Made by a program: the position numbers and the translations under genes. A DNA stretch of 64,000 nt from contig JANRIL010000028.1 in the NCBI GenBank assembly GCA_033764955.1, positions 15,165 through 79,164 of the forward strand, in the 5' to 3' direction. Positions 2,046 to 5,431 of the stretch are shown in pieces. Position 1 is the stretch's first letter; every line of letters begins with the position of its first letter. The stretch is from Cyanobacteriota bacterium (lineage in GTDB: Bacteria > Cyanobacteriota > Cyanobacteriia > Thermostichales > Thermostichaceae). A model generated the notes under the pieces. It did not search any database and was not told the origin of the DNA. It saw nothing but the letters and a program-made list of their open reading frames with translations.

Positions 2046-2279
2046 ACGGTCATTTTCAGGTTAAGAATTGTCAAGAAAACCCTTCCCCTACTCCGATCAA
2101 AACTCCTTGATAAAGGCGTTAGGAAGGGATCACAATTGCGTAAAATAGTAGCGGCTGATTCACCTTGCCAAGCTGAACTTACCCCCATTTAGAATACTCA
2201 TCACTTTCCAGATTTTGGCGTTGGATCCCTTTCCATGCACCATGCGAGTTGTTAACAAGCTACTTTTTTGAGGTTAGTC

Positions 2280-3089
2280 ATGCGGTATCGCCCATTCCTT
2301 GCTGTTTTTGTATCGGTGATTGTCACACTCTTTGCGGTTTGTGGCAGTGCCTCCGCTGCCAGCAAAACTCCTTTGACCTATGATCAAATCCGTAACACGG
2401 GCAAGGCAGCCATTTGCCCCACCGTCGGGGATGATGCTCGGGGCAAAATCGAAGTGCCCCTTGGCAAAACGGTCAAATTGACTGACATCTGCCTCCAGCC
2501 AGTCCGAATTGAGGTGGAAGAAGAAAAGCGTAACGGCGAGAAAGAATTTATTCAGGCCAAGTCTATTCTCCTGCCCGCCGCCTCTCTCGGACCAATCAAA
2601 GCAGAAGTGTCCGCCCAAGACAGCACGACTCTTTCCCTGAGGGTGACGGATGGGATGACCACTCAACCCACCACCGGGCAGATGCCGCGCCGCGAGTTGG
2701 TGCCCTTCCTGTTTAGTGTGAAGAACTTGCAGGCGGTGGCCAAAGGCTCGGATGCTTCCATCAATTCCTCGACTGACTTTGAGGGCAATTTCCTGGTGCC
2801 GGGTTACCATACCAGCCAATTTTTGGATCCCCGTGGACGCGGCTCAGGCACGGGCTATGAAGTGGCAGTTGGCTTGCAAGGAACTGAGTCGGATGCTTTT
2901 GAAACCAACCAGAAAGTGGATGAGATTTCGGAAGGACACCTCTCCCTACGGATTGCTCGTGTCGATGGCTCCACCGGAGAACTGGCGGGATCCTTTGTTA
3001 GCCTACAACCCTCTAGCACCGAGCAGGGCGCTCTAGAATCCAAATTAGTGCGTGTCCAGGGCCTGTTCTACGGGCGGGTTGATAGCTAG
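2280..3089 (+). CDS. psbO: Photosystem II manganese-stabilizing protein (divergent)
   Basis: Signal peptide, LTYDQIRNTG..CP, VPFLFSVKNL, FLDPRGRG, QGLFYG. Confidence 0.92.
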   Translation: MRYRPFLAVFVSVIVTLFAVCGSASAASKTPLTYDQIRNTGKAAICPTVGDDARGKIEVPLGKTVKLTDICLQPVRIEVEEEKRNGEKEFIQAKSILLPAASLGPIKAEVSAQDSTTLSLRVTDGMTTQPTTGQMPRRELVPFLFSVKNLQAVAKGSDASINSSTDFEGNFLVPGYHTSQFLDPRGRGSGTGYEVAVGLQGTESDAFETNQKVDEISEGHLSLRIARVDGSTGELAGSFVSLQPSSTEQGALESKLVRVQGLFYGRVDS

Positions 3090-3202
3090 CTAATGGTAGG
3101 GACTTGTTTGCGCCCTATTTGCCTGAGGGTTGGTCAGGAATGGTGAGTCTTCTCGGCCACGGTTGCGGTGAACTTCCTTAGCTAGTTCTCAATCCTGCTG
3201 CA

Positions 3203-3231
3203 TTGACGGACTAGGCATCTTGGCGTAGGCT
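3203..3231 (+). promoter_or_regulatory. sigma70-type promoter for the DAHP synthase leader
   Basis: TTGACG (3203-3208), 17-nt spacer, TAGGCT (3226-3231). Confidence 0.6.
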
Positions 3232-3321
3232 ACGAATATAAGCTCGATTGAGTCTTTTCCGATCAGCCCTCATCACTCGGTTTCCCTAAAACTTGATCCT
3301 AATCTGCTCGAATTTCCCCGT

Positions 3322-3408
3322 ATGACCTTCCATTCTTACTTTTTTGGCTACTTTACCAGCCCCTGGCATGAGTCAGGGCGAACGGGTACTGAGCAGATAA
3401 AAGTCTGA
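3322..3408 (+). CDS. Aromatic-amino-acid-rich attenuator leader peptide MTFHSYFFGYFTSPWHESGRTGTEQIKV (28 aa)
   Basis: Manual translation; 4 Phe, 2 Tyr and 1 Trp in the first 15 codons; lies directly upstream of a terminator and the DAHP synthase gene. Confidence 0.8.
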   Translation: MTFHSYFFGYFTSPWHESGRTGTEQIKV

Positions 3409-3432
3409 ATATGCTTTATCGAATCAAACCCT

Positions 3433-3464
3433 AGCCCTGAGCCAACCCTAGCTCAGGGCTTTTT
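3433..3464 (+). terminator. Intrinsic terminator (attenuator 3:4 hairpin)
   Basis: AGCCCTGAGC-caacccta-GCTCAGGGCT perfect 10-bp stem followed by TTTT, about 60 nt before the DAHP synthase start. Confidence 0.85.
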
Positions 3465-3523
3465 AATGGTTGTTCCGGTTCCCTTCTGCTTTTCCCTTCG
3501 CATTCTAAGGATCTCTGACTGTC

Positions 3524-4594
3524 ATGGTTGTCAATACTGAAAATTGCCATATTTTGGAGGCGGTTCCTTTGGTTTCTCCAAATGCTATTAAGGCCAAATT
3601 GCCCCTGACCGAGCCAGTGGTGCGGGTAGTGCTGCAAACCCGTGAGGCCATCCGCGATATTATCCATGGCCGGGATCCCCATCGGTTAGTGGTGATTGTG
3701 GGGCCTTGCTCCATTCATGACCCCAGCGCCGCCTATGACTATGCCCACCGCCTCAAGCAGGTGGCGGAGGCGACGGCAGAACAACTGGTCATTGTGATGC
3801 GTACCTACTTTGAGAAACCCCGCACCACAGTGGGTTGGAAGGGATTGATTAATGATCCTCACCTAGATGGCAGTTGTGATATCGCTCAAGGATTAGAAAT
3901 GGCTCGTTCCATTCTGCTCGACATCAATCACTTGGGACTGCCCTGTGCGGTGGAAATGCTGGATCCCGTAACTCCCCAATACATGGCGGATCTGGTCAGT
4001 TGGGCAGCAATTGGGGCACGCACCATTGAGAGCCAAACCCACCGAGAAATGGCCAGCGGTCTGTCCATGCCCGTGGGCTTCAAAAACGGGACGGACGGAC
4101 GGCTGCAAATTGCCTTGAATGCGATTATTTCCGCTAGCCACCCCCACAGCTTTTTGGGGATTAACCAAGATGGCATGACGGCTACGGTCAAAACATCGGG
4201 CAACCCCGACCGTCATATCGTTTTGCGAGGCGGTGGCGGTAAGACCAATTATGGAGTCGCAGATGTGGCGGATGCGGCAGCCCTCATGGCAGAACAGGGA
4301 ATTACCCGTCCGGTGATGGTGGACTGCTCCCACGACAATTCCAATAAAGACTATCGGCAGCAGGGATCCGTTTGCCGCGAGGTCTTGCGCCAGTTTGGGG
4401 ACGGGCAAAAAGCCATCATGGGATTGATGATTGAGAGTAACCTTAACCCCGGCAAACAATCCTGGTCAGAAGGTTGCCAACTGGATTATGGCGTTTCCAT
4501 CACTGATGGTTGTATTGGCTGGGCTGAAACGGAAACGCTCCTCATGGAGATGGCTCAGATGGTGAAAGGGAAAGATTTCGCTCTACTCCGATAG
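3524..4594 (+). CDS. aroF: DAHP synthase, class I-alpha (AroF/G/H type)
   Basis: GPCSIHD, YFEKPRTTVGWKGLINDP, IGART, GFKNGTDG, VDCSH, SITDGCIGW. Confidence 0.95.
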   Translation: MVVNTENCHILEAVPLVSPNAIKAKLPLTEPVVRVVLQTREAIRDIIHGRDPHRLVVIVGPCSIHDPSAAYDYAHRLKQVAEATAEQLVIVMRTYFEKPRTTVGWKGLINDPHLDGSCDIAQGLEMARSILLDINHLGLPCAVEMLDPVTPQYMADLVSWAAIGARTIESQTHREMASGLSMPVGFKNGTDGRLQIALNAIISASHPHSFLGINQDGMTATVKTSGNPDRHIVLRGGGGKTNYGVADVADAAALMAEQGITRPVMVDCSHDNSNKDYRQQGSVCREVLRQFGDGQKAIMGLMIESNLNPGKQSWSEGCQLDYGVSITDGCIGWAETETLLMEMAQMVKGKDFALLR

Positions 4595-4744: not shown

Positions 4745-5431
4745 TCAACGCTGATGGGAATCCAGTTGCCCACTCAGCCAATCCACAATATCCCGTAGGC
4801 TCTCGTTAGAAACATGGTGACCCATGTCGTATTCGCGGTAGGTCAGGTCAACAGCAAAGGTTTGCAGTTGCTCCCGCATCTGCCGCCCCATGTCAATCGG
4901 CAAAACCGGATCCTGCCGTCCATGCACCACCAACACTGGCATCCCTGTCAGAGAAGGGGTGAGAAGGGGGGCTGGTTCTGGGGGGAGAGTCTCATGGGGA
5001 AACCGCCCACTCATCACCACGACACCCGCTAGACGGTGAGGAGTCGTGAATAAGACACTCAAACTCATCATCCCCCCTTGGCTAAATCCCATTAGATAGA
5101 GTTGTTGGGGATCCACCGGATAATGCACCACCACCTCTGCCAAGAATTGGTGCAGCTGCCCCAAGCTAGCCTGAGCTTGTTGTGGGTTGCCCACAATCCC
5201 TTGGGGGGTAAATTCAATCTCAAACCAGCCATAGGCATGGGATCCCAGGCTGATGGGGGCACGGGCACTGATCAGAAAAAAACGAGGATCCAGGTAGGGG
5301 GCAAGACCCAATAGATCCTCCTCATGGCTACCCACCCCATGCAGCAGCACCAGGCAAGGGGATCCCTGATCGGTGGGGGTGACCTGAGGGGGACGAATGC
5401 GGTGAACCAGAGAAAAGGGATGTTCAGCCAT
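4745..5431 (-). CDS. Phospholipase/carboxylesterase (alpha/beta hydrolase)
   Basis: LLHGVG, GFSQG nucleophile elbow, HGRQD, GH. Confidence 0.9.
   Translation of the reverse strand: MAEHPFSLVHRIRPPQVTPTDQGSPCLVLLHGVGSHEEDLLGLAPYLDPRFFLISARAPISLGSHAYGWFEIEFTPQGIVGNPQQAQASLGQLHQFLAEVVVHYPVDPQQLYLMGFSQGGMMSLSVLFTTPHRLAGVVVMSGRFPHETLPPEPAPLLTPSLTGMPVLVVHGRQDPVLPIDMGRQMREQLQTFAVDLTYREYDMGHHVSNESLRDIVDWLSGQLDSHQR

Follow-up and report, generated by a model that had tools for sequence, protein, structure and literature searches.

A probable leader-peptide attenuator rich in aromatic codons upstream of class I-alpha DAHP synthase in the cyanobacterial family Thermostichaceae

Control of a DAHP synthase gene by a leader peptide is known from Corynebacterium glutamicum, where the aroR-aroF attenuator (Neshat et al. 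2014) has a Phe-Tyr-Phe leader and is described as responding to Phe and not to Tyr (PMC11802643). The element reported here resembles aroR-aroF in that a leader peptide with aromatic codons precedes a DAHP synthase gene, an arrangement in which stalling is described as raising readthrough (PMC11802643, PMC4046766), and it differs in that its leader holds seven aromatic codons of all three kinds and belongs to another phylum. In E. coli trpL-trpEDCBA and pheL-pheA, a leader ORF, a protector, an antiterminator and an intrinsic terminator follow one another in the same order as here (PMC11802643, PMC2659441). The two enteric leaders are described as sensing one amino acid each and controlling a terminal branch, which sets them apart from this case. 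Attenuators have also been predicted for aroA-I-alpha > tyrA in Vibrio and aroF in Shewanella (PMC1173090, PMC2659441). As at our locus, the gene for which attenuation is predicted encodes a class I-alpha DAHP synthase; these cases differ in being gammaproteobacterial and in forming an operon with tyrA, and the leader peptide is not given in the relevant parts of those papers.

In cyanobacteria, Sml0012 of Synechocystis PCC 6803, a peptide of 45 aa encoded before aroQ, has been suggested to be an attenuator peptide (bioRxiv 10.64898/2025.12.20.695498). Like the leader described here, it is a small ORF before a shikimate-pathway gene in a cyanobacterium; unlike it, Sml0012 is suggested to act on translation, from close spacing alone, and the preprint's account of it gives no codon run or terminator. 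A 2016 paper from an attenuation-survey group stated that there were no reliable data on attenuation in cyanobacteria (PMC4833913). The original prediction for this locus had called leader-peptide attenuation essentially undescribed in the phylum, and our literature search, which left most subscription papers outside its reach, likewise found no leader-peptide transcription attenuator described in cyanobacteria. Classical attenuation requires a ribosome that keeps pace with RNA polymerase. B. subtilis lacks such coupling, and many bacteria may lack it too (PMC7858274). The mechanism is textbook, and its use before a DAHP synthase gene is known from Corynebacterium. Novelty here lies instead in the phylum, in the RNA family and its Phe/Tyr/Trp leader, in the fixation of the element within one cyanobacterial family and in its dispersal across phyla together with the enzyme.

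The window, by which we mean the whole 64,000-nt stretch of DNA that was analysed, encodes on its plus strand a class I-alpha DAHP synthase of 356 aa (3524-4594), the gene under the proposed control. This gene scores 484.5 bits against TIGR00034 (aroFGH; cut-off 173.2) and 514 bits against NF009395. Upstream on the same strand lies a leader ORF of 28 codons (3322-3408; MTFHSYFFGYFTSPWHESGRTGTEQIKV), whose seven aromatic codons (F3, Y6, F7, F8, Y10, F11 and W15; four Phe, two Tyr and one Trp) all fall within codons 3-15. The helices are referred to by the 1:2, 2:3 and 3:4 naming of the enteric attenuators. Segment 1 (3359-3367, plus strand), which contains Pro14-Trp15, forms the 5' arm of a predicted protector or pause hairpin 1:2, in which 3361-3367 pair with 3372-3378. 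Segment 2 (3372-3379, plus strand) can pair either with segment 1 or with the 5' arm of the terminator, giving the antiterminator 2:3 (3373-3379 with 3434-3440). The predicted intrinsic terminator 3:4 occupies 3433-3467 on the same strand, with a 10-bp stem at 3433-3460, an 8-nt loop and T at 3460-3464. The leader ORF with seven aromatic codons among its first 15, the terminator hairpin with its T-run and the mutually exclusive 1:2, 2:3 and 3:4 layout had all been named in the original prediction, and each is found in the sequence exactly where it was placed. To these parts we add a predicted inner stem (3384-3431, plus strand), which joins segments 2 and 3 and fits both states.

A predicted sigma-70-type promoter, read in the sequence, precedes the leader on the plus strand (3203-3231), with TTGACG at 3203-3208, a spacer of 17 nt and TAGGCT at 3226-3231, and would place the transcription start near 3238. 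This earlier assignment stands in part: both boxes are present and the pattern recurs in relatives, but the site is absent from the consensus scan list (8 of 12 matches). The pattern TTGACN-N16-18-TANNNT lies within 150 nt upstream of the leader at 8 of 11 family loci outside genus g2, compared with 86 of 20,000 random control windows, and 11 of the 12 loci of genus g2 carry a different motif, GGGTAT(A/G)(A/C/G)T. Promoter regions are unalignable across the family (30% identity). No Shine-Dalgarno-like stretch was found upstream of the leader start in the window; the sequence just 5' of the start (3312-3321) is pyrimidine-rich, as in most relatives. CCCGT (3317-3321) could pair with ACGGG (3382-3386), which might block re-initiation, and by eye the relatives follow no consistent pattern in this respect.

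The leader peptide belongs to no Pfam or NCBIfam family and has no match in the protein collection searched. Among the families of Rfam release 15 (Trp_leader, Phe_leader, T-box and all others), none reaches its gathering threshold within 2800-3800 of the window, where the best score, 18.9 bits, comes from unrelated families; eight element loci gave no Rfam match either.

Both the fold and the codon content of the leader exceed what would be expected by chance. The fold of 3322-3470 has a z-score of -3.47 (0 of 200 shuffles as good), and its best structure contains 1:2 and 3:4; that of 3365-3445 has a z-score of -4.08, with 2:3 closed around the inner stem. At the genome's aromatic codon fraction of 7.9%, the probability of seven or more aromatic codons among 14 is 4e-5. 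Short ORFs with at least five aromatic codons in the first 16 occur in 31 of 1,602 upstream regions (at least 120 nt) of the window's genome, and in only one of the 1,602, that of the DAHP synthase leader, is such an ORF followed by a terminator. The simple terminator scan expects 0.9 terminator-like sites per shuffled kb. A scan for runs of other amino acids, covering short ORFs with terminators upstream of genes of at least 150 aa, revealed by eye no other convincing leader-peptide attenuator in this genome.

To relate ribosome position to the switch, we computed equilibrium folds of transcripts ending before the 3' arm of the terminator, with a ribosome footprint of -15/+13 from the P site. 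In the window, the probability of 2:3 is 0.53 with no ribosome, 0.98 with a ribosome at F3, 0.70 at Y6, 0.67 at F7, 0.78 at F8, 0.42 at Y10 (0.22 at 50 C), 0.83 at F11 and 0.94 at W15, and it is 0.00 from H16 to I26. Averaged over 22 distinct leaders, it is 0.17 without a ribosome and 0.47-0.89 when the A site lies anywhere from 13 codons before the Trp codon to that codon itself; it then drops to 0.14 at Trp+1 and 0.00 from +2 to +9. In some relatives, it is near 0 at stall positions. Since the mean falls right after Trp, the last stall codon that permits antitermination is the last aromatic codon. With a ribosome at the stop codon, the equilibrium model gives no 2:3 in 17 of the 22 leaders, while 2:3 re-forms behind it in four, the window's included. 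The earlier proposal that stalling masks segment 1 holds from codon 12 on, but at F3-Y10 segment 1 is uncovered and 1:2 still competes; the sharper switch in the model is that a ribosome beyond W15 covers segment 2. On the full transcript at equilibrium, the terminator has a probability of 1.00 for every ribosome position, and thus the switch must be kinetic.

The calculated energies at 37 C are -11.7 kcal/mol for 1:2, -19.2 kcal/mol for the terminator 3:4 and -25.5 kcal/mol for 2:3 plus the inner stem, the inner stem alone contributing -12.2 kcal/mol. On the early transcript, 1:2 has a probability of 0.85.

The element is conserved throughout the family. The class I-alpha DAHP synthase gene is present in all 22 other family genomes, and an aromatic leader ORF lies 5' of it at 23 of 23 family loci, in agreement with the earlier expectation that an aromatic leader would be conserved in related cyanobacteria. 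These ORFs have 20-29 codons and lie about 160-250 nt before the gene. The same leaders also occur in Synechococcus sp. and Thermostichus sp. records, and the family includes cultured thermophilic members. A covariance model, R1, built from 33 leaders (21 from the family and 12 from outside), finds exactly one copy of the element in each of the 23 family genomes, a count that is not independent because most family rows sat in the training set. The next best R1 match in the window's genome has an E-value of only 0.37, so the element is single-copy there; R1 has no match in seven genomes of the sister family.

All 21 distinct family leader ORFs contain the motif Y-F-x-x-(P/T)-W (19 by anchored count and two read directly), with its Trp at codon 14-17, and all 21 have at least three Phe, at least one Tyr and at least one Trp codon up to this invariant Trp. 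No aromatic codon follows the invariant Trp in 18 of the 21, and indels upstream of it preserve the reading frame. The Tyr-Phe of the motif is always TAC TTT, with no synonymous change, and helix 1:2 also demands the invariant CCTGG in which the Trp codon lies. Part of the apparent conservation of the peptide may therefore lie at the RNA level.

In the window, the upstream neighbours of the element are psbO (2268-3089; Pfam MSP), hisG (1362-2045; TIGR00070) and a gene for a TPM-domain protein (418-1287), and a convergent carboxylesterase gene lies on the minus strand at 4745-5431. One might thus read the hairpin as the terminator of psbO, with a chance ORF in front of it, given that psbO ends at 3089 and that no other terminator-like site is listed in 2800-3800; the hairpin may indeed also stop psbO readthrough in this genome. 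However, the element is kept in all 22 relatives, whose gene order differs from the window's for both psbO and the esterase, and psbO is found in none of their loci (about 1.5 kb of flanks). As a main explanation the psbO terminator is refuted by this conservation, and we assign it a practically negligible probability. Because psbO is missing beside the element in the relatives, the leader travels with the enzyme gene.

The predicted helices are maintained by sequence changes in the 33 leaders, bearing out the expectation of covarying stems: compensatory changes occur in 1:2, 2:3 and 3:4, in 2:3 through one pair. Paired cells make up 88.6% for 1:2, in which three of seven pairs have changed on both sides, 88.7% for 2:3, and 90.9% for 3:4, in which three of the eight counted pairs have changed on both sides. 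Controls with slid registers reach at most 56, 60 and 64% for 1:2, 2:3 and 3:4, a comparison that overstates the difference, given the relatedness of the rows and a structure derived from one of them. The outer pair of 2:3 (3373:3440) persists in only 10 of 33 leaders, which reduces the conserved core of the antiterminator to 6 bp (3374-3379 with 3434-3439, plus strand), each kept in 32-33 of the 33. Its A-U pair is G-C in seven leaders and G-U in three; this single pair is the whole of the 2:3 covariation, which does not exceed the control for two-sided change (474 of 500 shuffles). In the inner stem, the starting GGG and a CC near the end are nearly invariant among the 23 family loci.

The T tract of the terminator has 4-7 T within 8 nt from the stem end at the 23 family loci, with at least 6 T at 19 and a weak tract of 4-5 T at four. 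In metatranscriptomes, the locus of one relative (L011) occurs in 24 runs, of which four were examined as assembled contigs, which show neither transcript ends nor levels. The contigs cover the leader, and one contig per run bridges the hairpin into the gene in all four. Summed depth is higher for the leader than for the gene in 4 of 4 runs, but contig depth cannot rank gene parts and we give this difference no weight. Adapter-joined contig ends lie at 1293 (X5) and 1404 (X3) of L011, each from a single study, and are likewise given no weight. The bridging contigs, together with a T tract that is short or broken at 4 of 23 family loci and at some outside loci, would suit hairpins that govern translation or stability of the DAHP synthase mRNA, as a processing or protective stem, with no termination involved. 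We consider this very improbable, since the hairpin ends about 35-120 nt before the gene and so leaves its start uncovered, 19 of 23 loci have at least 6 T, and an attenuator would itself let some transcription through.

Outside the cyanobacteria, the enzyme finds its nearest relatives in Binatia and Nitrospira records, with up to 70% identity, above the 52-57% of other cyanobacterial I-alpha genes. Among 78 non-cyanobacterial loci, two of which lack upstream DNA, we judged 16 to have an aromatic leader with a related terminator. They are mostly from Myxococcota, together with two Binatia, two Acidimicrobiia and one Spirochaetaceae record; four of them (L085, L097, L108 and L109) are divergent or weak, and the T tract is short or broken at some outside loci. 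The Nitrospira clade (45 rows) has no element. An attenuation survey by Lopatovskaya et al. (2010) is said to have covered many phyla and might include myxobacterial leaders. In the myxococcotal locus L085 (984-1129), a full RNA element (52 bits) contains a leader with only one Phe and one Trp codon, seemingly a decayed or narrowed sensor. At L101 (1340-1477), a terminator hairpin precedes the enzyme gene, no leader ORF was found, and another gene seems to end just 5' of it.

As a blind test, we searched with R1 a further 150 genomes from the phylum to which G189, a Myxococcales record's genome, belongs. The search returned 10 matches besides G189, of which nine lie directly 5' of a class I-alpha DAHP synthase gene. 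Eight of the nine are new to the training set and one duplicates a row already in it; for eight, an aromatic ORF complete with start codon is listed. The tenth match is, by eye, a tRNA-like gene with a similar hairpin. A further R1 match (E 4e-6), in the genome of a Binatia record (G190, locus L174, 1501-1645), has a stretch of Cys codons in its ORF (MFSIATCCCCLPCTG...), together with a similar terminator. Its downstream gene probably encodes a sulfate-binding ABC protein (a weak match to SBP_bac_11; the sulfate label is our reading), which makes L174 a candidate cysteine attenuator on a look-alike RNA scaffold.

These outside leaders bear on two further readings. One is that the element is a constitutive dampener, or a small RNA or peptide gene with its own terminator, whose aromatic codons are by-products that sense nothing; Phe and Tyr codons are T-rich, the Trp codon is part of a stem, and no synonymous variant of TAC TTT occurs in the family. 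However, leaders in phyla with GC-rich genomes, where TTC and TAC are used, retain the start codon, the frame and the aromatic content, and indels keep the frame. Moreover, the element is tied to one aromatic-pathway enzyme (nine of the ten blind matches), and the look-alike RNA before the probable sulfate-binding protein has Cys rather than aromatic codons. We therefore regard a non-sensing element as highly unlikely.

The other reading is a TnaC-like nascent-peptide arrest, in which a free aromatic amino acid or metabolite stalls the ribosome and sets the same hairpins. It would account for the motif fixed in 21 of 21 family leaders and for the FYF and YF..W motifs that recur in other phyla. 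Yet F, Y and W come in freely varying order and spacing in leaders from outside the family, some of which lack PW, and a stall caused by the product would turn a biosynthetic gene on, which is the wrong sign. TnaC control also needs Rho, and Rho was not found in the window's genome (best TIGR00767 score 34.8 bits, cut-off 509; assembly 89% complete), a result that fits intrinsic termination. Only a slim chance is left to such an arrest.

Together, our results suggest that the gene for class I-alpha DAHP synthase is very probably under classical ribosome-mediated attenuation of transcription, as judged from sequence, conservation, covariation and the tie between leader and gene. The original prediction that one leader would integrate Phe, Tyr and Trp is roughly an even call; the Phe-Tyr-Phe leader of C. 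glutamicum, for comparison, is described as answering to Phe alone of its two amino acids.

An unrooted tree (LG+G4, 57 rows, from which partial genes, near-duplicates within the family and most of the Nitrospira sequences had been omitted) places the family I-alpha genes in one group (98/99) and the seven other cyanobacterial I-alpha genes in another (100/99), and the AU test rejects uniting the two (p = 0.018). The leader needs seven changes on this tree, which names no donor or direction. On the simplest reading of these sequences, gene and leader were likely acquired jointly by the family ancestor from outside the cyanobacteria. Seven I-alpha loci from other cyanobacterial families, in which 16 genomes gave a match, all lack a leader-plus-terminator. 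R1 under strict filters gave only six weak matches (E 5e-4 to 1e-2) in a sample of 150 genomes of the cyanobacterial phylum, a search that is insensitive to short class I-beta leaders since the strict filters missed them.

These short I-beta leaders came from a TIGR01361 search of 70 genomes, in which 20 loci were examined. All 11 short-type I-beta loci from the window's class (L127-L137) have an F/Y/W-rich ORF followed by a hairpin and a T run, with two leaders in tandem at nine of them, while full-length I-beta genes of other classes have a leader-plus-terminator at none of nine loci. The short I-beta leaders share with the I-alpha leader their design and the activity of the enzyme they precede. 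They differ in the class of that enzyme, which has 273-290 aa at 10 of the 11 loci (one start is uncertain), and they match R1 weakly (9-29 bits for the best match per locus). The proximal leaders of L131, L136 and L137 read ..FYSFYFWP.. or ..FYGFYFWP.., near the ..YYGFYFWP.. of a class I-alpha leader, L183, from another genome (G238) of the phylum of G189; this likeness may reflect either shared ancestry or convergence.

It is tempting to speculate that a single Phe/Tyr/Trp attenuator RNA family moves between phyla as a cassette with class I-alpha DAHP synthase, and that cyanobacteria have put attenuation on a spare DAHP synthase twice, once on I-alpha and once on short I-beta. This reading, which spans Myxococcota, Binatota, single spirochaete and actinobacterial records and one cyanobacterial family, is tentative, and we hold it to be somewhat less probable than its opposite.

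The original prediction had the element before the first committed enzyme of the shikimate pathway. The gene does encode a class I-alpha DAHP synthase, but it is not the sole entry, as the window's genome encodes elsewhere another DAHP synthase, which is of class I-beta and carries a ferredoxin-like regulatory domain. The start of this I-beta gene overlaps the stop of the preceding ORF and thus leaves no room for a leader, so the attenuated I-alpha gene is an additional isoenzyme. The best PDB match of the I-alpha enzyme is the Tyr-sensitive enzyme 6agl (E 7e-125), and it retains the residues aligned to N8, P148, Q152 and S181 of 6agl. These residues presumably serve feedback inhibition, and their retention implies that allosteric control of the I-alpha enzyme may be retained too. 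In the same genome (89% complete), ARAGORN lists one tRNA-Phe (GAA), one tRNA-Trp and no tRNA-Tyr.

We propose a mechanistic model for the attenuator. Transcription would begin near 3238, and the polymerase would wait at hairpin 1:2 for a ribosome to load. With ample charged aromatic tRNAs, the ribosome would pass W15 and cover segment 2, blocking 2:3, so that 3:4 ends transcription and the RNA is released with its 3' end near 3464-3467. For a leader as long as this one, with 28 codons, this would require 1:2 to form again in the wake of the ribosome. Upon tRNA shortage, the ribosome would wait at codons 3-15 and leave segment 2 free to pair with 3434-3440 across the inner stem before the 3' arm of the terminator is made, and the gene would be read. 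The response would be graded, firmest at F11-W15 and weaker at Y6-Y10, where 1:2 competes. The attenuator would thereby add DAHP synthase capacity on shortage, beside the leaderless I-beta enzyme.

If confirmed, the attenuator would be a compact sensor of aromatic amino-acid supply. An element of about 150 nt that is fixed in a whole family makes transcription-translation coupling directly testable in cyanobacteria, and a regulatory RNA seems to travel across phyla with its enzyme. Should the cassette reading be true, coupling between transcription and the leading ribosome would be tight enough in Rho-less cyanobacteria to support classical attenuation, and a single leader would read the charging of three tRNAs to gate entry into the shikimate pathway.
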